Below are positions 4,339-24,646 of a stretch of 64,000 nt of DNA, one piece after another; position 1 is the first letter of the stretch, and each line of letters opens with the position of its first letter. This stretch comes from Clostridia bacterium. GTDB taxonomy: Bacteria; Bacillota; Clostridia; UMGS1840; HGM11507. Below the pieces are notes generated by a model. It ran no database searches. It was not told the DNA's origin and was given only the letters and a program-made list of their open reading frames with translations. The position numbers and the translations under genes were made by a program. Location: the NCBI GenBank assembly GCA_017414505.1, contig JAFQLQ010000003.1, forward strand, positions 23,994 to 87,993, given 5' to 3'.

Positions 4339-5208
4339 ATGCTTGCAAATGTTTTAATACTTGGCGGCGATTTACGTCAGATTCGTGTAGGGGAGGAGTT
4401 TTTTTCAGATTCTTACAACGTAAGCTTTTGCGGATTTGACAGGGAGTTTATTAATTCTGAGTTTGAATTATATGATAATTTGTTTGATGCACTTAACGAA
4501 AACGATATAATTATTATGGGACTTCCGGTATCAAAAGACGCAGTTAAGTTAAATACCCCTTTGTATAAAGGTGAAATACTGCTTGATGATATTGTTAAAT
4601 GTGCAAAATGTCAGACTGTATTTTTAGGCGGTATTCCGGACGAAATATTTATTAAAAAACTTAAGAGAAAGACAGAAAACGTTTTTGACTATTACTCACG
4701 AGAGGAACTTATAATAAAAAATATTATTCCTACTGTGGAGGGCGCAATTTCCATTGCCATAGAAGAAACGCCGTTTACTCTCTATGGAAGCAATGTGCTT
4801 GTTACGGGATTTGGAAGAATCAGCAAACTTCTGGCACGGTATCTTGATGCGCTGGGAGCAAATGTAACAGTAAGCGCAAGGAAATTACATGATCTGGCAT
4901 GGATTGAAACCTTGTCATACAAAAATATCAGAACTTCTGAAATTTGCAAAACAATAGGGGAATACGACATAATTTTTAATACTGTTCCGGCAACTGTAAT
5001 TGATAAAAATTGTATTGATAATGTGAAACCGGATGTACTTATAATAGACCTTGCCTCAAAGCCGGGCGGAGTCGATTTTAACTATGCCAGGGAAAAAGGT
5101 ATAAAAACAATATGGGCGCTTTCACTTCCGGGAAAGGTTGCACCTCTTAGTGCAGGAAAAATAATAAAAGAAACAATTAAAAATATTCTGGATGAACTGG
5201 GGGGATAG
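4339..5208 (+). CDS. dpaA: Dipicolinate synthase subunit A (SpoVFA-like)
   Basis: N-terminal LILGGDLRQ, a Rossmann-type VTGFGRISK, and overall SpoVFA-like length. The flavoprotein-type B subunit follows after a 3-nt gap. SD is GGAGG. Confidence 0.85.
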   Translation: MLANVLILGGDLRQIRVGEEFFSDSYNVSFCGFDREFINSEFELYDNLFDALNENDIIIMGLPVSKDAVKLNTPLYKGEILLDDIVKCAKCQTVFLGGIPDEIFIKKLKRKTENVFDYYSREELIIKNIIPTVEGAISIAIEETPFTLYGSNVLVTGFGRISKLLARYLDALGANVTVSARKLHDLAWIETLSYKNIRTSEICKTIGEYDIIFNTVPATVIDKNCIDNVKPDVLIIDLASKPGGVDFNYAREKGIKTIWALSLPGKVAPLSAGKIIKETIKNILDELGG

Positions 5209-5784: not shown

Positions 5785-5810
5785 AGGAGCAACCGCTCCT
5801 TTATTTTATT
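5783..5810. terminator. Bidirectional terminator between convergent dpaB and the ABC exporter gene
   Basis: AAAGGAGC (5783-5790), loop AACC, GCTCCTTT (5795-5802). It is flanked by A-run and T-run sequence on both strands. Confidence 0.6.
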
Positions 5811-7614
5811 CAAACTGTGAATTGTAAAGTGTACTGTAAAATCCGCCTTTTTTCATAAGCTCATCATGATTTCCGGATTCGGTTATTTTACCGTTTTGGA
5901 GAACAATAATTTTATCTGCATTTTGTATTGTGGACAATCTGTGTGCAATAATAAAACAGGTTCTGCCCTTCATAAGCTCGTTCATCGCTTCCTGAATTTT
6001 TATTTCTGTTCTTGAATCTACATTGGATGTTGCTTCGTCAAGAATAAGTATCTGTGAATTGGAAATCATTGCTCTTGCAATTGTTATAAGCTGTTTCTGA
6101 CCTTTTGAAATGTTAATCCCGTCATCGGTTAGTATGGTGTTATATCCGTCGGGCAGGCTTTCAATATAACTGTCAATTTTAGCAGCTTTTGCCGCCGCCT
6201 TTACTTCTTCAAAGGTTGCATTTTCTCTTCCGTATGCAATGTTATCATAAATAGTTCCGCAAAAAAGCCATGTATCCTGTAAAACCATCGTGTAGGTCTT
6301 GCGAAGAGATTTTCTTGTAATATTTCTTATATCGTTGCCGTCTAATGTAACCGAACCGTCTGAAACATCATAAAAACGCATAAGAAGATTGATTATTGTT
6401 GTTTTTCCGGCTCCGGTAGGTCCTACAATTGCTATGGTTTTTCCGGGTGAGGCAGTAAGTGAAATTCCGTGAAGAATGGTTTTATCCGGAGAGTATCCGA
6501 AAACAACGTTATTAAAATCAACTTTTCCATCTGTTTTTTCAAGCTTTAATGCACCAAAAGAATCCTCTGTTTCCGGCTCTTCATCAAGAACCTTGAAAAT
6601 TCTTTCAGCAGCAGAAAGAGCTGATTGAAATTCTGTAATTATGTTTGCAAATTCGTTTATCGGTCCTGCAAATTTTCTTGAATACTGAACAAACTGTGCC
6701 ACACCGCCAAGTGTTATGAAAAACAGTGTACCCTGAGGAGTTGTACCGTTTTGAGAATACATATAAAGTATTCCGCCTAAAATCATAATAAGCGAAATGG
6801 AAAGATTGTTTATAAAGCCAACAGATGGGCCCATTGTGCCTCCGTAATAGTCAGCCTCATAATAAGCATTCATAGAGTCGTTGTTTCGTTTGTTAAAACG
6901 ATTTCCTATTTCTTCTTCCCGGGAATATGCCTGAATTGTACGAAGTCCGGATAACATTTCCTCAGCGTAACCGTTGAGCTCGCCTAATTTTCTTGAACGC
7001 TTCCTAAAAAGCGGACGAACTTTTTTTGAACGGTATCTTGTAAAAATAATTGCAGTTGGAACCGTTATTACAAAAACAAGAATAAGCGGCTTTGAAATAT
7101 TCCACATAAATACCAGTGAACCCACAACTGTGTAAATACTGGTCATCACCTGAACAAGGTCATGGGAGAGTGTGCTGTTCAAAGTATCAATATCGTAAGA
7201 AATTCTGCTTATTATATCTCCTGTAGGATGGGTATCAAAATATCCTACAGGTAAGGAAAGAAGCTTTTCGAAAAGCTGACAACGCATAGTATATACAATT
7301 TTCTGACTTATGTAAATCATAAGAACTGCCAGAAGATATGATAAAACCGCTGAAAAAATATAGCATATAAGCATCAGTATAATATTTTTCTGAACAGCAG
7401 TAAAATCAACTCCGCTGATATTTGCTATGGCATCTATCGCTTCTCCGGAATATTTCGGTCCCAAAAGAGAAAGCTGGTTGGAAAACAATGTCATAACTAT
7501 TGACGGAATAAAAAGATACCAGTATTTCATTACATAGCCTAATATTCTTATAAGTATATTGCGGGCGGTTTTTCTGTCGATTTTTTTCTTTTCAGGTCTA
7601 TTCAACAAAAGCAC
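5806..7614 (-). CDS. ABC exporter permease/ATPase half-transporter (canonical catalytic Walker B, deviant signature)
   Basis: N-terminal 6-TM domain plus an NBD. Walker A GPTGAGKTT, Walker B ILILDEATS, signature ISKGQKQ in place of LSGGQ. Confidence 0.9.
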   Translation of the reverse strand: MLLLNRPEKKKIDRKTARNILIRILGYVMKYWYLFIPSIVMTLFSNQLSLLGPKYSGEAIDAIANISGVDFTAVQKNIILMLICYIFSAVLSYLLAVLMIYISQKIVYTMRCQLFEKLLSLPVGYFDTHPTGDIISRISYDIDTLNSTLSHDLVQVMTSIYTVVGSLVFMWNISKPLILVFVITVPTAIIFTRYRSKKVRPLFRKRSRKLGELNGYAEEMLSGLRTIQAYSREEEIGNRFNKRNNDSMNAYYEADYYGGTMGPSVGFINNLSISLIMILGGILYMYSQNGTTPQGTLFFITLGGVAQFVQYSRKFAGPINEFANIITEFQSALSAAERIFKVLDEEPETEDSFGALKLEKTDGKVDFNNVVFGYSPDKTILHGISLTASPGKTIAIVGPTGAGKTTIINLLMRFYDVSDGSVTLDGNDIRNITRKSLRKTYTMVLQDTWLFCGTIYDNIAYGRENATFEEVKAAAKAAKIDSYIESLPDGYNTILTDDGINISKGQKQLITIARAMISNSQILILDEATSNVDSRTEIKIQEAMNELMKGRTCFIIAHRLSTIQNADKIIVLQNGKITESGNHDELMKKGGFYSTLYNSQFE

Positions 7615-9319
7615 CTCCCATCTGAGAATCGCTTATTTCACGGTATTCATTGCAGGATTCAAGCAAGCTTTCGTGAGTTCCGCATCCTATTATTTTTCCG
7701 TTATCCATAACCAGTATCAGATTACAGTCCTTTACAGAGCTTACACGCTGTGCAACGGTGATAAATGTTGTATTTTTGGCACTTTCGTTAAGAGCCGCAC
7801 GTAAAGCCGCGTCAGTTTTATAGTCCAGTGCAGAAGAACTGTCGTCTAAAATTAATATTTCGGGATTTGCCGCAAGTGCTCTTGTGATTAACAAACGTTG
7901 CTTCTGACCGCCTGAAATGTTGGTTCCGTGTTGTGATAGAAGGTGATTGTATCCATCGGAAAATGATGTTATAAAATCGTGAGCTTGAGCAGTTTTTGCT
8001 GCTTTTACAATTTGTTCAAAGGAGATATCTCTGCCGAATTTTATGTTTTCTTCTATTGTGTCGGCATACAGAAAATCGTATTGCTGAGCAGAACCAAACA
8101 TAGTGTACAGCCTGTTTTTTTCTATTGTTCTTATATCTTCTCCGTTTATGTAAATTCCGCCCTTATCAATATCATAAAAACGCATAAGATGCTTTATTAT
8201 TGTGGATTTTCCGGAGCCTGTCGCACCAATAATACCCAGCGAATCGCCTTTTTTCAGCTTGAAACTGATGTTTTCAAGATTATTTCTTTTTTTGTTGTAG
8301 GAAAATGTAACTTTGTCAAAAACAATGTGAAAATCCTTTGAAATATCCGGATATTCTTTTTCAGATTTTACTTTTATGTCTTCCTTTGTATTAAGAACTT
8401 CGGCAATTCTTTTTGCTGATGCGGCACATTTTGTATACATAACAAAAATTCTTGTAACTGCCATCATCGACATGGAAATATGTGTAAAATACTGCATAAA
8501 TGCTATTACTGTTTCGGGCGAGGATAACCCGTTTGCAACACGTCCGCTGCTTAATGCAATAACCGCAACGCTTCCTATGTTCATAAACATAGTCATAACA
8601 GGGTTAACACTTCCCATTATAACACCTGCAGTTGTTTCATTTTTAACAAGTTCACGGTTAACTTCATCATAACGGCGTTGTTCGTAGTCGGTTTTGGAAA
8701 GTGCTTTTATAACTCTTATACCCTGAGAATCCTCGCGGACAACTCTTACCATACGGTCGACCGATTTTTGAACCTTTGTGTAAAGCGGAACACCCTTTTT
8801 TGAAATGAAATATACAGTAGTAAAAATAAAAGGGAGAATTGCAATCATAACAAGAGAAAGTGCCGCATCCATAAATAGTGTTATGGATATACCTCCGATT
8901 AACATAATCGGTGCACGAACACCCATTCTCTGAATCATATTTATGAAATGATGAACGTTGTAGGTATCAGTGGTTATTCTGGATTCAAGGGAAGGAATTG
9001 TAAATTTATCGGTCTGTGCCGCCGATAAAAGGAGTGTTTTTCTGAATAAATCTTTTCTTACATCCTCAGCAAAATTCTTTGATACCAAAGCCGCCATACG
9101 GTTTGCAATAATATTAAGTGCGCACGATATAAACGAGCATATCAGCATTAATACTCCCCAGAAAACAATGTTGTTAACAGATTTTCCCATAACATTGGTT
9201 AAAATGTGAGTTAAAATGTAGGGGAGCATAAGCTCTGCCATTGTGCCTACGGTTTTAATAAAAAAACCGCAGGACATTTTTCTAGAATATTTTTTTAAAT
9301 ACAATAAAACTGTTTTCAT
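7598..9319 (-). CDS. ABC exporter permease/ATPase half-transporter (degenerate Walker B)
   Basis: Walker A GATGSGKST and signature ISGGQKQ. Walker B is ILILDDSSS, with the catalytic Glu replaced by Asp. Overlaps the partner gene by 17 nt. Confidence 0.9.
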   Translation of the reverse strand: MKTVLLYLKKYSRKMSCGFFIKTVGTMAELMLPYILTHILTNVMGKSVNNIVFWGVLMLICSFISCALNIIANRMAALVSKNFAEDVRKDLFRKTLLLSAAQTDKFTIPSLESRITTDTYNVHHFINMIQRMGVRAPIMLIGGISITLFMDAALSLVMIAILPFIFTTVYFISKKGVPLYTKVQKSVDRMVRVVREDSQGIRVIKALSKTDYEQRRYDEVNRELVKNETTAGVIMGSVNPVMTMFMNIGSVAVIALSSGRVANGLSSPETVIAFMQYFTHISMSMMAVTRIFVMYTKCAASAKRIAEVLNTKEDIKVKSEKEYPDISKDFHIVFDKVTFSYNKKRNNLENISFKLKKGDSLGIIGATGSGKSTIIKHLMRFYDIDKGGIYINGEDIRTIEKNRLYTMFGSAQQYDFLYADTIEENIKFGRDISFEQIVKAAKTAQAHDFITSFSDGYNHLLSQHGTNISGGQKQRLLITRALAANPEILILDDSSSALDYKTDAALRAALNESAKNTTFITVAQRVSSVKDCNLILVMDNGKIIGCGTHESLLESCNEYREISDSQMGGAFVE

Positions 9320-10245
9320 CTTTTTATCTCCGGCAAGTTATTTACCGCGGTAACTATATCCATAACTTTCGAAGCCTTTTTTACCGCTTTTAAAATTTTC
9401 TTCTCTTCCGGGAAATTCAGCATCATAAGAAGCCATATTTCCTTTATTTTATTTAAAACATAGTGTTCTGATACAAGAACCTTTGTGTAATTTTCTATAA
9501 GAATATCAGAGAATTCAATAAGTTCCGAAGTTGTTAAGGGCGCACCTCCCTTAATTTCTCTGAAAATGGCAGGATTTGCAATGGCGCCTCTGCCTATCAT
9601 CACGCCTTCAAGCATAGGAAATTCTTCTGAAATCTGTATGTAATCGTCTCTAGAAAAAATATTTCCGTTGTAGCATAGCTTGTTTTTTGAAATTTCGTAT
9701 GCTCTTTTAAATGCATCGTTGTCCGGTTCGCCTTTGTAATAATCTTCTCTTGAACGGGGATGAATAATTAAAGGAACGGAAGGATATTTGTTGTAAATTT
9801 CAATTAAATTGTCGAGCTCTGAAGTGTTAAAAAATCCTGCTCTGGTTTTTATGGTTATTTTTATATCATTTTCAGAATATACCTCGTATAAAAATCTGTC
9901 AAGTTCTTCCGGAGTGCGTAAAAAGCCTGAACCTCTGTTCTTTTTTACTACTGTTCCGGAGGGACAGCCAAGATTAATATTTACTTCGTTGTATCCTATT
10001 GATTTAACTTTTTCGGCAAATTTTTTAAAAGATTCCGATTGACAGGTTAACACCTGAACTTTTAAATCAATACCCTGATTTTTTTCCGGCATAACATCTC
10101 TTAAGCTTTTTATGCTAAAACGTTCTATGTCACTTGGCGTAATAAAAGGCGCATAGTAAGCTTCGCATCCACCAAAAATTTTAGCGTGTGTTGTTCTGTA
10201 TGTGCAAGAGGTAACACCCTCAAGCGGTGCAAAATATAAATTCAT
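9316..10245 (-). CDS. tRNA-dihydrouridine synthase family protein
   Basis: Dus-type TIM barrel blocks (FAPLEGVT, NINLGCPS, MIGRGAIANP). The start codon abuts the stop of the upstream gene. Confidence 0.8.
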   Translation of the reverse strand: MNLYFAPLEGVTSCTYRTTHAKIFGGCEAYYAPFITPSDIERFSIKSLRDVMPEKNQGIDLKVQVLTCQSESFKKFAEKVKSIGYNEVNINLGCPSGTVVKKNRGSGFLRTPEELDRFLYEVYSENDIKITIKTRAGFFNTSELDNLIEIYNKYPSVPLIIHPRSREDYYKGEPDNDAFKRAYEISKNKLCYNGNIFSRDDYIQISEEFPMLEGVMIGRGAIANPAIFREIKGGAPLTTSELIEFSDILIENYTKVLVSEHYVLNKIKEIWLLMMLNFPEEKKILKAVKKASKVMDIVTAVNNLPEIKR

Positions 10246-12855
10246 CTAACCCTCCAGCTCTTCAAGCTTATCCCATATTGTTTTAAAAAATCCTGAATTT
10301 TCAACCTCTAAATTATGTCTGTAAATCATATCTCTTACAAGGTCTTCAACACGTTCTACTTCTTCCAGCAATATTCTTGCAGGCATTCTTAAAGCACCGC
10401 TTCCGAAAATTATCATTTGTTCAAGACCGTCTGATGTGGCAACAGTAACCTTGTAGTTTTTGCTTAATTCTGTAGCAGTTTTTTCAATATATGAATCAGC
10501 GGTTTGAGCTTCTTTTGTGTAAACAACCGTAATTCCGTCAATTCTCTCGGTTTCTCCACGGTTTCCTTTTACCTTGTATGCATCAAAAACAATTATTATT
10601 TCATATTTCTTGAAAATTTTATATGCCGCAATACGGTCAATAAGCTTGTTACGTGCAGCTTCAAGGCTTTCTTTTGAAAGAGCTTTTAACTCCTCCCATG
10701 CAAAAATTATATTATATCCGTCAATTAAAAGATATTCCTTGTCATATGTTTTCTTTTGTTTTTTTACGTATTTTTCGGGAATAGGCTGTTTTTCTGTCTT
10801 TAAAGTGTAGTTGGGGTTCTTTCTTTCAATTTTTCCGTAAGTACGTTCAAATATTTTTATTAAATCCTCATCACTTGCTGTTTTTCGTTCGGAGCGAACA
10901 ACCGTAGGTGCTTCTGAAGTTTTTTTAGGCTTCAGAATGCTTTCAAGATGCATATATTCCGTAACTTCGTCCCATTTTACGGTAAATCCTGCACCGTGTG
11001 AACAAAAAACAGAATCTGCAGTATTTTCAACATCGGAATCTGCATTGTATCCGATTTGTTCAATAACTGTTTCAGGATTTCTGCAAGGGCCGTAACCGCT
11101 GAATTTACAGCTTAATTTTCCTTTTCCGTGTGTATAGCCTATTATTTCTCTTTGATAATTTCTTATTGCATCCGCCGCAACGTTACCTGAAATTTTAGTC
11201 ATATCGCCACGTGTAACAGGAAGAGAAAATTCTGCTCCCATTCTGTCTAAATCAGTCATAGCCTTGCCAATACAATCGGAAGGAACTTCCAGAGAAAAAT
11301 CATAGTATGGCTCAAGTAAAACACTTTTTGCCATACGTAACGCGTGTCGTACTGCTCTGTAAGTTGCCTGACGGAAATCACCACCCTCAGTATGTTTTAA
11401 ATGTGCCTTTCCGGATTTTAATGTTATTTTAATGTCTGTTATAGGAGAGCCGGTAAGAACACCAATGTGCTGTTTTTCCATAAGATGCGTCATAATTAAG
11501 CGTTGCCAGTTTTTATCCAGTAAATCCTCATCGCAATCACATTCAAACTGCATTCCCGAACCTGCACTAAGCGGTTCTAAAAGCAAATGAACCTCGGAAT
11601 AATGGCGTAGAGGCTCATAGTGTCCTACTCCCTCAACTTTGTTTTCAATGGTTTCCTTGTAAACAATTCTGCCTTCTTCAAATTCAACATTCATATCAAA
11701 GCGTTTGCTTATCTGCTGCTTTAATACTTCAAGCTGAATCTCGCCCATAAGACGAAGCTGAATTTCCTTTAAATGCTCATTCCATACCACATTTAACTGT
11801 GTTTCTTCCTGCTCAAGCTGTTTTAATTTTTCAATTGCGGTTGCCGAATCGGTTCCGGAGGGAAGAATAACACGGTAATTAAAAATGGGCTCTGCAGTAA
11901 GCTTTTCAGAATTTTTTTCAAATCCCAATCCTTGTCCTGCATAAGTTTTCTTAAGACCGGTTACTGCACATACCACACCGCTTGGAGCCTCATCAAGAGC
12001 CTGATATTTGTCGCCGGAATATATTCTTATTTCGTTTATTTTTTCACTTTCTTCGCCTGTGTCAATAAGAGCTTTAACCCTGACTGTGCCACCGGTTATT
12101 TTCATATGAGTAAGTCTCTGACCGCGCTCATCGGTTTCTATTTTAAAAACCTTTGCTCCGAAATCTGAAAGTGGCTCGTTTTGTTTTGTTAAATATGCAA
12201 AAGCTTTTAAAAATGTTTCCACACCCTCTAATCTGAGCGCAGAACCGCTGAAACAAGGAAATAAGGAACGTTGCTTAATTGCGGAAATAACTGCTTTTTC
12301 GTCTGTTTTTCCGCTTTCCAAATATTCCTGCATTATACCTTCATCGCAAACAGCAAGATTTTCGCTTAAACGTTCTTTATCTTCATCAAGAAAATCAACA
12401 AAATCAGCATTGAAATCTTCTTTTAATTCTTCTATAACACGAGTTTTATCAGCACCGTTTAAATCCAGTTTGTTTATAAAAATAAAAGTGGGAATATTGT
12501 GTTTTTTAAGAAGCTCCCAAAGAGTTTTTGTATGACTTTGAATACCGTCAGTTCCGCTTATTACAAGAACAGCATAATCAAGAACCTGAAGGGTTCTTTC
12601 GGCTTCGGCAGAAAAATCAATATGTCCGGGCGTGTCAAGCAGAGTTATAACCGTATCTTCAAGCTTAATAACAGCTTGTTTTGAAAATATGGTTATACCT
12701 CGTTTTTTTTCGATTTCATCAGTATCAAGAAATGTATTCTGACTGTCAACTCTGCCAAGATTACGTATTTCACCTGCACAGTATAAAAGACCTTCGGAAA
12801 GGGTTGTTTTGCCTGCATCAACGTGTGCAAGAATTCCTGCGGCAATTCTTTTCAT
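10246..12855 (-). CDS. EF-G/Tet(M)-like translational GTPase fused to a C-terminal Rae1/YacP-type NYN ribonuclease domain
   Basis: G1 AHVDAGKTT, G3 DTPGH, G4 NKLD and EF-G-like domains II-V are present. The last 164 aa (nt 10249-10740) match B. subtilis YacP/Rae1 block for block. ATG 12855 lies 10 nt after AAGGAG; the track's GTG 12885 would overlap adh. Confidence 0.85.
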   Translation of the reverse strand: MKRIAAGILAHVDAGKTTLSEGLLYCAGEIRNLGRVDSQNTFLDTDEIEKKRGITIFSKQAVIKLEDTVITLLDTPGHIDFSAEAERTLQVLDYAVLVISGTDGIQSHTKTLWELLKKHNIPTFIFINKLDLNGADKTRVIEELKEDFNADFVDFLDEDKERLSENLAVCDEGIMQEYLESGKTDEKAVISAIKQRSLFPCFSGSALRLEGVETFLKAFAYLTKQNEPLSDFGAKVFKIETDERGQRLTHMKITGGTVRVKALIDTGEESEKINEIRIYSGDKYQALDEAPSGVVCAVTGLKKTYAGQGLGFEKNSEKLTAEPIFNYRVILPSGTDSATAIEKLKQLEQEETQLNVVWNEHLKEIQLRLMGEIQLEVLKQQISKRFDMNVEFEEGRIVYKETIENKVEGVGHYEPLRHYSEVHLLLEPLSAGSGMQFECDCDEDLLDKNWQRLIMTHLMEKQHIGVLTGSPITDIKITLKSGKAHLKHTEGGDFRQATYRAVRHALRMAKSVLLEPYYDFSLEVPSDCIGKAMTDLDRMGAEFSLPVTRGDMTKISGNVAADAIRNYQREIIGYTHGKGKLSCKFSGYGPCRNPETVIEQIGYNADSDVENTADSVFCSHGAGFTVKWDEVTEYMHLESILKPKKTSEAPTVVRSERKTASDEDLIKIFERTYGKIERKNPNYTLKTEKQPIPEKYVKKQKKTYDKEYLLIDGYNIIFAWEELKALSKESLEAARNKLIDRIAAYKIFKKYEIIIVFDAYKVKGNRGETERIDGITVVYTKEAQTADSYIEKTATELSKNYKVTVATSDGLEQMIIFGSGALRMPARILLEEVERVEDLVRDMIYRHNLEVENSGFFKTIWDKLEELEG

Positions 12856-12872
12856 ATGATAAAAACTCCTTA

Positions 12873-13979
12873 TCAGATCAAACACTTATTAAATATCTCA
12901 ATTTCATCTTCTCTTGTAACCTCAAAAGGACAGATGGGAACATTTTTTGCCTGAATGGTAGTGGCAGTCCAATCCTCAAACTCTTCTTTGGTAAATTTAA
13001 TATCGCAGGGAAGAATTTTTAAAAGATATTCTTTAAAATCAATCAGTTTATCAAATCCAAGCATTATTAGTGCATTTTTTACTTTTTCGGGAAGAACTGT
13101 GGCTGTTCTTTCAAGATATTCGCCAAGCAACAATCCGTTTGCCATTCCGTGTGGAATATCCTTGTAATAGGTTAAAGGGTATCCCATAGAATGAACAATG
13201 GTTGTTCCTGTCTGGGAAATAACTATTCCTCCAAGAGTTGCCGCCCACAGAAGCTCGGTGCATTTTTCTGTATCAAAATCACCGTTTATTATTGTTTCAA
13301 GATGTTTGCCGAAAATTCTTAAGCCTTCAAGGGCGATGTAGTCGGAAGCAGGGGAGGAACGCTTGTTGGTAAACCCTTCCAGTAAATGACACATTGCATC
13401 AACTGCGGTATTTCGTGCAATCTGCAGCGGAAGATTAAGAGTGTATCTGCCGTCTAAAAAAGCAACCTTGTAAAAAACATCCGGGGAAGCAAAGCTTCTC
13501 TTGTTCTTTTCCTTATGCAAAGTCAAAATAGAATACGGAGTTGTTTCCGATCCTGTTCCGGCAGTTGTTGGAATAGCAACCATTGGAAGAGGCTTATTTT
13601 TGAATTTCAAATCAAAAATATCATACATATCAAAATCGGTACCGGTTTCGTTAACTGCATAAACAGCTATAGCTTTTGTTGCATCAAGAGGTGAACCTCC
13701 GCCGATTCCAATAAGGAAATCTGCACCAAAATTTTTAGCTTGTTTACCGCCTTCTAAAGTTTCTTCAATGGTGGGATTGTTTCCTATTTTATCATATACC
13801 AGATAAGGAATATTGTTTTCTTCAAGAACTTTTATAACATCAGAAAGAGCGCCCGATTTTGCACCTGATGTTTTTCCGGTTACTATCATTGCTTTTGTAC
13901 CGTAAATTAAATCTTTACTGTTGTTTAAAACTGAAAATTCGCCCGTAATTATTTTTGTTGGCATTAAAAAATTAAACAT
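12873..13979 (-). CDS. Iron-containing alcohol dehydrogenase family protein
   Basis: GGGSPLDATKA motif and His-rich metal-site region (HLLEGF, VHSMGYP), typical of Fe-ADH. Confidence 0.85.
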   Translation of the reverse strand: MFNFLMPTKIITGEFSVLNNSKDLIYGTKAMIVTGKTSGAKSGALSDVIKVLEENNIPYLVYDKIGNNPTIEETLEGGKQAKNFGADFLIGIGGGSPLDATKAIAVYAVNETGTDFDMYDIFDLKFKNKPLPMVAIPTTAGTGSETTPYSILTLHKEKNKRSFASPDVFYKVAFLDGRYTLNLPLQIARNTAVDAMCHLLEGFTNKRSSPASDYIALEGLRIFGKHLETIINGDFDTEKCTELLWAATLGGIVISQTGTTIVHSMGYPLTYYKDIPHGMANGLLLGEYLERTATVLPEKVKNALIMLGFDKLIDFKEYLLKILPCDIKFTKEEFEDWTATTIQAKNVPICPFEVTREDEIEIFNKCLI

Positions 13980-13991
13980 ATTAAAATCTCC

Positions 13992-14837
13992 TTAATGTAT
14001 ATCGTATAAAATTTCACTTGCAACAGCATTTTTTCTGTATTGCGACGGTGAAATTCCGTATTTTCTGGAAAACAGTTTGGAAAAAGCAAGCTTATCTTCA
14101 TACCCGACAAAAGCGGCGATTTCTCCTATTGAGTATTCTTTTCCCGAAAGTAATTTTTTAGCTTTTTCAAGCTTGTACTGAATAATATAATCGTAGGGTG
14201 AAATTCCTTCTTTGTTTTTAAACAATCTGTAAAGATAAGAATGCTCAAGTCCCACATAACGGCAAAGTTCTTCTACCGTTAAACGTCTGTAATAGTTTAC
14301 CTGAACATAATTTTTGCACATAGTTATGTATTCTTCGACGGTTTTTCTTACAATTTGAGATTCTTTGTGATTATATTTTATCATATCGCCCAGTAAAGTA
14401 AGCATTGCGCCGGAAACAAGAAAATCGTTGTTTTCATCCTTTGTGTCTACTAAAGCTTCAAAATGTTTTTCAATTATGTCTGGGCGTTTGGTTTTATAAA
14501 TGGGATTTTCTTCCGAAAGACCGACACTTTTTATAAAATTGCTTGCCATAGAGCCTGAAATATTAATCCATATGTAATACCACGGATTCACCATATCGGC
14601 TTCGTAGTAAACTTCGTTTTTACCATATATAAGAAAAGCGTTACCTTTTGAAAGATGATATGTTTTTCCGTTATATACCGCTTTTCCTTTTCCGCTTACA
14701 ACATAATGAATAAGATATCTGTCATCATAGCTTACAGCATAGCTGTGCCCGGGAGGACAATGCTGACTTCCGATACAAAAAAGCGACATATTTTCGCAAA
14801 CAAGATTTGTTGCTAAAAAATCCATTTTATCAGTCAC
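13992..14837 (-). CDS. AraC-family transcriptional regulator (cupin N-domain + HTH)
   Basis: C-terminal dual-HTH AraC signature (LCRYVGLEHSYLYRLFK..., IAAFVGYEDKLAFSKLFSRKYGISPSQYR). Confidence 0.85.
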   Translation of the reverse strand: MTDKMDFLATNLVCENMSLFCIGSQHCPPGHSYAVSYDDRYLIHYVVSGKGKAVYNGKTYHLSKGNAFLIYGKNEVYYEADMVNPWYYIWINISGSMASNFIKSVGLSEENPIYKTKRPDIIEKHFEALVDTKDENNDFLVSGAMLTLLGDMIKYNHKESQIVRKTVEEYITMCKNYVQVNYYRRLTVEELCRYVGLEHSYLYRLFKNKEGISPYDYIIQYKLEKAKKLLSGKEYSIGEIAAFVGYEDKLAFSKLFSRKYGISPSQYRKNAVASEILYDIH

Positions 14838-24041: not shown

Positions 24042-24386
24042 TTAAATAAGACCAAAACTTACATTTAAAGCATCGTTTACCTTAATTAAGGTAGAATTGT
24101 TTAAATGTCCGATTTTTTCTTTCAGCCTTTTTTTATCAATGGTTCTGATTTGTTCCATTAAAATTACCGAATCCTTTGGCATACCAAATTCTTCAGCGTT
24201 AATTTCAATGTGAGTAGGAAGTTTTGCCTTGTTTATTTTACTTGTTATTGCGGCGGCAATAACAGTAGGGCTGTGTTTGTTTCCAATATCATTCTGAACA
24301 ATCACAACAGGGCGAATTCCACCTTGCTCGGATCCTACAACGGGGCTTAGATCCGCATAGTATATATCTCCGCGTTTGATTTGCAC
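24042..24386 (-). CDS. mazF: MazF/EndoA-type mRNA interferase toxin
   Basis: [29 protein letters not shown] is nearly identical to B. subtilis NdoA/EndoA. Confidence 0.9.
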
Positions 24387-24388
24387 AT

Positions 24389-24646
24389 TTATTCACTCTC
24401 CGTTAAATAGAGCTCCCCGATATCGAGAGCCTCATTGTCTGACTGAATGCCTAAGTTTGCAAGCCCCAAATTAATCATGCCCATTTCCTGATAGCCATTT
24501 ATCATTTCTTCTTCTTTTTTCTTCTTATTATTGATATAATCATTTAAAATATCATTTATAACCTTATTTACATCCTCGTTTTCTTCGCTTAGATAATCAA
24601 AAACAGATGCGGGAATTTCAATTTCCAATTTTTTAGTTGTATCCAA
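24389..24646 (-). CDS. mazE: MazE/EndoAI-type antitoxin
   Basis: Acidic 85-aa ORF ending 2 nt before mazF. TTG 24646 lies 7 nt after [17 protein letters not shown] resembles EndoAI GYMEMAKINL. The track's ATG 24700 has no SD. Confidence 0.7.

Follow-up and report, generated by a model that had tools for sequence, protein, structure and literature searches.

A Clostridia gene encoding a Tet/EF-G-like GTPase fused to a Rae1-type nuclease belongs to a large family with a conserved flexible tether

Here, we describe a gene that joins a Tet(M)/EF-G-like translational GTPase to a Rae1/YacP-type NYN nuclease in a single polypeptide. It lies in a 64,000-nucleotide stretch of a Clostridia bacterium genome (assembly GCA_017414505.1, contig JAFQLQ010000003.1, positions 23,994 to 87,993), hereafter the window, to which all coordinates refer unless another locus is named. 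The gene and all of its features are on the minus strand. A six-frame listing gives an open frame at 10246..12885, which would encode 879 aa if started from GTG; the ATG at 12855, with a Shine-Dalgarno sequence AAGGAG (12866..12871) 10 nt upstream, yields 869 codons followed by a TAG stop at 10246-10248. The complete coding sequence (10246..12855), defined by the open reading frame listing, its Pfam content and the occurrence of an identical protein on 4 contigs, is thus the single 869-codon frame that an earlier, sequence-only reading of this DNA had reported. The peptide motifs named in that reading, AHVDAGKTT, DTPGH and NKLD as well as LLEPYYDFSLEVP, HLKHTEGGDFRQ, LLIDGYNIIFAW, IIIVFDAYKVKG, VVYTKEAQTADSYIEK and VATSDGLEQMIIFGSGALRMPARILLEEVE, are all found in the translation, and the profile search that it proposed as a check returned EF-G-type Pfam domains and NYN_YacP, all exceeding their gathering scores.

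The same fusion, for which the sequence-only reading had suggested a survey of other genomes, occurs in several hundred 50%-identity clusters. In a collection of 5.8 billion proteins, the 120 best homologue clusters share 66-95% identity with the window protein, measure about 865-930 aa and have an unchanged Pfam set. When residues 594-869 were compared with 1.84 billion 50%-identity representatives, 429 matched at E<=1e-30; among the best 150 of these, nearly all align across aa 594-869 as one stretch, and 75 are full-length proteins of 822-1156 aa. Conservation was assessed in an alignment of the window protein with these 75 full-length representatives (n=76), whose members are 38-59% identical in the C-terminal part. 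The longest proteins (960-1156 aa) contain no extra domains, only insertions in the G domain and longer tethers. All named relatives are Clostridia (Ructibacterium, Oscillospiraceae, Ruminococcus, Lachnospiraceae, Agathobacter and Monoglobus), and they include a 933-aa homologue from Agathobacter rectalis and one from Monoglobus pectinilyticus, both cultured species with finished records.

This distribution bears directly on whether a sequencing error might have joined two adjacent genes, an explanation to which we attach practically no credence. The identical 869-aa protein is encoded on 4 independently assembled contigs, the architecture is shared by no fewer than 120 clusters at 66-95% identity and by 75 or more full-length representatives at the 50% level, and the homologues are drawn from NCBI, ENA, JGI and Logan assemblies as well as from the finished genomes of A. 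rectalis and M. pectinilyticus. Nothing was found in favour of an artefact, which we consider refuted, and the fusion of a Tet(M)/EF-G-like GTPase with a Rae1-type nuclease in one polypeptide is confirmed as real.

The GTPase part comprises five EF-G-type domains and ends at residue 593, so that the sequence-only reading was right about its nature and placed its end, at about residue 650, too far downstream. The G domain (aa 1-220, 12196..12855; Pfam GTP_EFTU at aa 4-220, E=2.7e-47) includes the G1 motif AHVDAGKTT (12802-12828) and the G4 motif NKLD (12463-12474), both near-invariant in the 76 members, and the G3 motif DTPGH (12622-12636) with the catalytic His78, which is present in 75 of 76. 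It is followed by domain II (aa 233-307, 11935..12159; EF-G_D2, 7.5e-08), a beta-barrel in the AlphaFold2 (AF2) model, domain III (aa 321-393, 11677..11895; EFG_III, 9.1e-07), domain IV (aa 395-510, 11326..11673; EFG_IV, 2.9e-16) and domain V (aa 512-593, 11077..11322; EFG_C, 1.6e-16). The features expected of a translational GTPase, namely AHVDAGKT, RGITI, DTPGH, NKLD, the catalytic His and domain II, are all present, and the four motifs G1-G4 hardly vary among the 76 members. In line with this, AF2 models domains I-V (residues 1-593) confidently, with a mean predicted local distance difference test score (pLDDT) of 73.9 for the whole protein, and a Foldseek search with this model returned ribosome-bound EF-G at the top (E about 1e-50), which supports a five-domain EF-G fold. 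The whole-model search returned EF-G chains only, at low TM-scores that we attribute to the uncertain inter-domain arrangement (predicted TM-score, pTM, 0.42), and is silent on the position of the NYN domain.

At the level of sequence, the N-terminal 695 aa match the solved structures of Tet(O) (4v6v, 4.4e-74) and Tet(M) (3j9y, 4.2e-73) best, with EF-G structures ranking below at about 1e-64. The score against the EF-G equivalog model TIGR00484 is 272.5 for a cut-off of 659.4, and the remaining EF-G and EF-G2 models of NCBIfam likewise score under their cut-offs. The tip of domain IV, defined by alignments to Tet and EF-G structures, nevertheless recalls EF-G. In loop III (KAHLKHTEGGDFR, aa 483-495, 11371..11409), His485 aligns with the tip His of EF-G, H573 in a printed alignment of the Thermus thermophilus protein; in Escherichia coli EF-G the counterpart is H583. 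Moreover, the motif GKAH at this position is identical to that of Mycobacterium smegmatis EF-G2, T. thermophilus EF-G having GSYH there. The fusion differs from EF-G in the rest of the tip loop, which is family-specific (KHTEGGDF), as well as in its attached nuclease and in its sub-cut-off TIGR00484 score. The loop is strongly conserved within the family, with H485 in 69, K487 in 71, H488 in 74, T489 in 72 and D493 in 75 of the 76 members.

The C-terminal module is a Rae1/YacP-type NYN endonuclease domain (aa 707-846, 10318..10737), identified by Pfam, by its match to PDB 5mq8 and by alignment. NYN_YacP (PF05991) matches aa 709-849 with E=3.6e-50 and 170.7 bits against a cut-off of 24.6, and the last 174 aa match residues 3-138 of Bacillus subtilis YacP/Rae1 (5mq8) with E=1.7e-28. 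The domain is 50% identical to B. subtilis Rae1 over 127 aligned residues and 55% identical to the stand-alone YacP of Clostridioides difficile, two proteins that share just 40% identity with each other, and it is confidently modelled by AF2. The C-terminal YacP/Rae1 match proposed by the sequence-only reading is therefore well founded, and so is its emphasis on acidic residues: D7, D53, D81 and D104 of Rae1 correspond to the active-site residues D712 (10720-10722), D758 (10582-10584), D787 (10495-10497) and D809 (10429-10431), each conserved, like N715, in 76 of 76 members. By all sequence measures the nuclease module is a mainstream Rae1-type domain. Thus, the fusion shares with B. subtilis Rae1 (5MQ8/5MQ9) the NYN_YacP fold and all four active-site Asp residues. 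It differs in that Rae1, a product of the gltX-cysS-mrnC-rlmB-yacP operon, stands alone at about 170 aa and reaches the ribosome by itself, whereas here the nuclease is the C-terminal cargo of an 869-aa GTPase encoded in an unrelated context, flanked by genes for an iron-containing alcohol dehydrogenase and a tRNA-dihydrouridine synthase (Dus). The stand-alone yacP of C. difficile likewise sits in the classic operon, gltX-cysS-mrnC-thyX-rlmB-yacP. Beyond the nuclease domain lies a poorly conserved tail (aa 847-869, 10249..10317) for which AF2 predicts, at low confidence, a helix at 856-868.

Two further segments separate GTPase and nuclease. The first is an extension specific to the family (aa 594-640, 10936..11076) that was recognised in the family alignment, has no Pfam match and is weakly modelled by AF2. 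It is conserved at S615 (76/76), F617 (76/76), C618 (74/76), G621 (76/76), W628 (72/76) and H636 (70/76), and C591, conserved in 66 of 76 members, adjoins it; together, these residues could form a metal site or a ribosome-contact element. The second is a disordered, charged tether (aa 641-706, 10738..10935), delimited by pLDDT values below 50 and by the family alignment. Its sequence in the window protein, with 15 Lys among 66 residues, agrees with the Lys-rich linker of the sequence-only reading, but across the family it is better described as a mixed-charge disordered tether with a conserved helix. A tether of 56-188 aa is present in every member at a sequence identity of only about 13%. Because its existence is conserved but its sequence is not, and because pLDDT stays below 50 at 641-661 and 674-706, it seems to act as a flexible leash and not as a rigid fusion. 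Between these disordered parts AF2 predicts a helix at 662-673, and the alignment columns delimit a short conserved element (DEDLIKIFERTYG, aa 662-674, 10834..10872) with the family motif (D/E)ELxxIFERTYG and a mean identity of 48% to the window protein, which looks like a docking motif.

Taken together, the conservation pattern of the 76 members reflects purifying selection across the family, which maintains a working GTPase and nuclease, the particular tip of domain IV and the flexible leash, and GTPase and nuclease both appear catalytically competent. Measured against the window protein, mean identity is highest in domain IV (61%), followed by the G domain and the NYN domain (50% each), domain V (39%) and domain III (37%). 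Since domain IV is the most conserved part and bears a family-specific tip, we argue that contacts with the decoding centre are central to function. All of this points to a chromosomal and probably vertically inherited translation factor of Clostridia, with ribosome binding inferred from homology.

The gene is a new member of a family of Tet-like/NYN_YacP fusions that has been described before, and the architecture itself, presented in the sequence-only reading as a novelty, is not new. The fusion was reported from ten species by Atkinson (2015; BMC Genomics 16:78; PMC4342817), who placed the proteins in the Tet subfamily and proposed testing their ability to act as an rRNA RNase, and it was mentioned again by Matelska et al. 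(2017; NAR 45:6995; PMC5499597). The window protein belongs to exactly this group, with the same architecture and from the same taxon, Clostridia. Both accounts are limited to one or two sentences each and do not deal with the motifs, the tether, the tip of domain IV or the genomic context. The statement that no characterised example was known has held up, in that we found no functional study in the full-text literature, a search whose scope excluded most subscription journals. What we add here is the size and conservation of the family, the leash, the EF-G-like tip His, the departure from tetracycline-protection proteins and a likely mis-annotation.

The assignment to the Tet subfamily raises the question of whether these proteins protect ribosomes from tetracycline, or from another antibiotic of the A site, and have acquired the nuclease as an accessory. 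Such a role was proposed by Atkinson (2015) and is implied by NCBI product names; in addition, Tet(O) and Tet(M) are the nearest characterised relatives, the best NCBIfam model, tet_protect, aligns end to end, loop III is as long as that of Tet(M)/Tet(O), and B. subtilis Rae1 is linked to antibiotic-responsive operons (bmrBXCD). The likeness to Tet(M)/Tet(O) is indeed extensive: both are five-domain EF-G-like GTPases, they align end to end with E about 1e-74, and the G domain aligns throughout. The scores, however, fall well short of every Tet family, with 425.7 against a cut-off of 775 for tet_protect (NF012153), 304.4 against 900 for Otr(A), 290.9 against 1100 for the M/W family, 266.7 against 1425 for Tet(Q) and 249 against 1420 for Tet(M). 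Moreover, the functional residues of loop III, the part of domain IV that displaces the drug, are replaced. In Tet(M), Pro509 is reported to lie in the tetracycline site and to interact with C1054 (PMC8161019). The Tet(M) residues L505-Y506-Y507-S508-P509-V510 align with K483-A484-H485-L486-K487-H488, so that YY becomes AH and the position of Pro509 is taken by Lys487, a Lys in 71 of 76 members, and the motif SP[VI]S occurs anywhere in the sequence in only 2 of 75 family members. The difference in the domain IV tip noted in the sequence-only reading (Y506/Y507/S508/P509/V510 to A/H/L/K/H) is therefore real. The fusion further differs from Tet(M)/Tet(O) by 276 extra C-terminal residues that include the nuclease, and by its chromosomal and non-mobile setting. 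No transposon, integrative and conjugative element or plasmid genes lie nearby, the fusion neighbourhoods we compared contain neither mobile-element nor tet-regulatory genes, and matches in a plasmid database are only large, non-mobilizable, housekeeping-rich replicons, on which ground we rejected a plasmid or mobile origin. There is also no leader or attenuator, for which the 17 nt between the ATG of the fusion and the stop codon of the upstream gene leave no room. Sub-cut-off scores against all NCBIfam Tet models, a replaced loop III and a chromosomal, non-mobile context all agree with the sequence-only view that this is not a plain tetracycline-protection protein, and we regard an antibiotic-protection role as improbable.

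This conclusion matters for annotation, because some members carry the public name 'TetM/TetW/TetO/TetS family tetracycline resistance ribosomal protection protein', for example WP_306784676.1 of A. rectalis (comparison locus L017, 5099-7900), others being named 'NYN domain-containing protein', 'GTP-binding protein' or 'translation factor GTPase family protein'. Given the sub-cut-off scores and the replaced loop III residues, the Tet product names are likely a mis-annotation, and surveys of the gut resistome may mistake for a resistance gene what is a housekeeping gene widespread in commensal Clostridia. Similar doubt as to replicon type applies to some of the plasmid-database records themselves, namely the fusion-bearing 'plasmid' records of 251 kb from A. 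rectalis and 517 kb from Monoglobus. Records of C. difficile 'plasmids' (96-150 kb, non-mobilizable; NZ_CP033217.1, 49109-57465) carry gltX-cysS-mrnC-thyX-rlmB-yacP...secE-nusG, and the presence of this core gltX-to-nusG region makes them look like mislabelled chromosome fragments.

What the nuclease does on a translational GTPase depends on how Rae1 itself is understood. Experiments show that Rae1 cleaves mRNA endonucleolytically and in dependence on translation, and that its cuts fall 12 nt upstream of the A-site codon, where the tail of the stalled ribosome lies; this cleavage feeds trans-translation and may require collided ribosomes (PMC12407103). The sequence-only reading had taken action in the A site as established and had proposed that the GTPase controls delivery of the nuclease to that site, but the premise was revised in 2025 by the laboratory that introduced it, which stated that its earlier A-site idea rested mainly on docking and that structural work is in progress (PMC12407103). 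In complexes of EF-G and of Tet(M)/Tet(O), furthermore, domain IV fills the 30S A site (PMC8161019), and since domain IV of the same polypeptide would occupy this site while the factor is bound, the nuclease is unlikely to share it with that domain. RelE-like cleavage within the A-site codon could still be imagined, for example once domain IV withdraws after GTP hydrolysis: the modules are fused, the A site is within the reach of EF-G/Tet factors, the length of the tether would permit folding back, and the authors' earlier work had docked the Rae1 crystal structure into this site (PMC12407103). With the A-site model abandoned by the Rae1 laboratory in favour of cleavage 12 nt upstream, and the site filled by domain IV of the same chain, we give delivery into the A site little probability. 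The fusion therefore accords more with the revised view of Rae1 than with the former A-site model.

We instead favour, tentatively and at slightly less than an even chance, a GTPase-docked and tethered Rae1 by which mRNA is cleaved next to a ribosome that has stalled or collided. By homology, the GTPase would dock at the ribosomal factor-binding site with domain IV in the 30S A site, and would sense a stalled ribosome, which might have a vacant A site, the state that Tet proteins recognise, or might have collided and be ready to translocate but blocked. Docking would raise the local concentration of the nuclease, and the leash of 56-188 disordered residues would let the Rae1 domain sweep roughly 50-100 Å by our estimate. 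This sweep would cover the mRNA entry side and, in a collided pair, also the mRNA leaving the tail of the leading ribosome, which is where free Rae1 cuts and which would thus be within reach of the leash. Cleavage would occur outside the occupied A site, most plausibly where mRNA enters the ribosome or in the stretch that separates a collided pair, after which GTP hydrolysis would free the factor and the cut mRNA would pass to rescue and decay pathways.

Several points weigh against this proposal. Ribosome binding, the mRNA substrate, the cut position and the ribosome state that is sensed are all suggested by homology, in a family that is known from sequences and for which the full-text literature yielded no functional study; the reach of the tether and the exclusion by domain IV are argued by analogy with EF-G and Tet(M) complexes; and the AF2 placement of the nuclease relative to the GTPase is unreliable (pTM 0.42). 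In addition, the conserved extension (594-640) and the tether helix (662-674) could aim the nuclease elsewhere, for example at rRNA. This leads to a different reading, in which the GTPase would dock on ribosomes that are immature, damaged or idle, and the NYN domain would cleave their 16S or 23S rRNA in the course of rRNA maturation, rRNA proofreading or ribosome turnover. An analogy exists in eukaryotes, where the PIN nuclease Nob1 acts with the GTPase eIF5B in 18S 3' end formation. The extension and helix could serve to position the nuclease on rRNA, and YacP was first predicted to be an rRNA/tRNA processing enzyme on the basis of its operon with mrnC and rlmB (PMC5499597). Yet for Rae1, a close relative (50-55% identity), all substrates defined by experiment are mRNAs on translating ribosomes, and a long, poorly conserved leash suits a mobile substrate better than one fixed rRNA site. 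We consider an rRNA-directed factor unlikely, though less so than the other alternatives.

The combination of a nuclease with a ribosome-targeting module also resembles some toxins, and a BrnT/BrnA pair adjoins the A. rectalis copy, so that an abortive-infection effector that stops translation by cleaving ribosome-bound RNA could be imagined. A defence system was rejected after a PADLOC search without a match. No conserved neighbouring immunity or partner gene was found among the relatives compared, and the fusion behaves as a single-copy, core-like gene on an ordinary chromosome with vertical spread across Clostridia, which makes a toxin or anti-phage function very improbable.

If mRNA cleavage by a GTPase-docked Rae1 is correct, its logic would resemble that of SmrB in E. 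coli, Cue2/NONU-1 in eukaryotes and the Ski7-exosome, which place a nuclease at the boundary of stalled or collided ribosomes. In the case of Ski7, a protein resembling translational GTPases connects a nuclease complex with the ribosome. The likeness extends to the proposed logic only, since the nuclease folds are unrelated (SMR, exosome) and these systems use separate recruiting domains or partners, in contrast to the covalent EF-G-type tether seen here. More broadly, the family might constitute a Clostridia-wide route of ribosome rescue and no-go decay, in which a GTPase sensor with a leashed Rae1 cuts at the ribosome boundary under GTP control, a proposition that we find possible but doubtful. 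Should it be true, the fusion would be a natural 'Rosetta stone', and a housekeeping sensor of stalled ribosomes would suggest itself as the ancestor of tetracycline protection proteins. For the origin of ribosomal protection proteins it is relevant that a Tet-like family is large, is chromosomal and carries an EF-G-like tip on domain IV. Covalent fusion to a factor of known ribosomal site constrains the geometry of how Rae1 finds stalled ribosomes and offers a direct experimental handle, with A. rectalis and M. pectinilyticus available as cultured hosts.

The genes around the fusion offer little guidance to its function. Directly upstream on the minus strand lie genes for an AraC-family regulator and an iron-containing alcohol dehydrogenase (12873-14837), separated by gaps of 12-17 nt; 17 nt lie between the ATG of the fusion and the TGA stop (12873-12875) of the dehydrogenase gene, and the fusion may be co-transcribed with these metabolic genes in this organism. 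Promoter and terminator scans gave the same counts as shuffled sequence. Downstream, the ATG of the dus gene (9316..10245, minus strand) abuts the stop codon of the fusion (TAGATG), an arrangement that is also found in a 74%-identical relative (comparison loci L011, 8629-9555, and L012, 3016-3942) and is absent from more distant ones. Because it is kept only in the closest relatives, Dus is probably context rather than a partner. Two genes for ATP-binding cassette half-transporters with overlapping ends follow (5806-9319, minus strand), and among bacterial structures these match the heterodimeric exporter TM287/TM288 best. Among the mRNAs targeted by Rae1 in B. subtilis is that of bmrBXCD, which encodes a transporter of this class. 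A link of the window pair to BmrCD was nonetheless rejected: it is a generic TM287/288-type heterodimeric exporter that is not kept beside the fusion elsewhere, and we regard its position as coincidence.

Other relatives have different neighbourhoods, with genes for Dtd, an alpha-amylase, an RNase J-like beta-CASP enzyme, an M20 peptidase, MetAP/GatB-YqeY or an aminotransferase, and a conserved operon partner was rejected on this basis. At most, the neighbours show a loose tendency toward RNA and translation functions (Dus, Dtd, RNase J-like, MetAP). In one branch of the family, a gene of the metallo-beta-lactamase fold with beta-CASP and RMMBL domains (RNase J-like) ends 46 nt upstream of the fusion on the same strand (comparison loci L015, 4344-5954, and L016, 2486-4096). 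The 64-kb window contains no second NYN or EF-G paralogue and no tRNA genes; the chromosome around the fusion is of an ordinary, housekeeping character and carries genes for TsaD/TsaE, FTHFS, Tex, AddAB, alanine racemase and DpaA as well as sugar-utilisation genes. A PemK-family toxin gene and a small upstream open reading frame, a probable antitoxin, adjoin the alanine racemase gene (about 24042-24646, minus strand). Finally, a gene with a DpaA_N domain (dipicolinate synthase subunit A) lies on the plus strand at about 4339-5208, and its presence suggests a spore former within the Clostridia as the source of this DNA.

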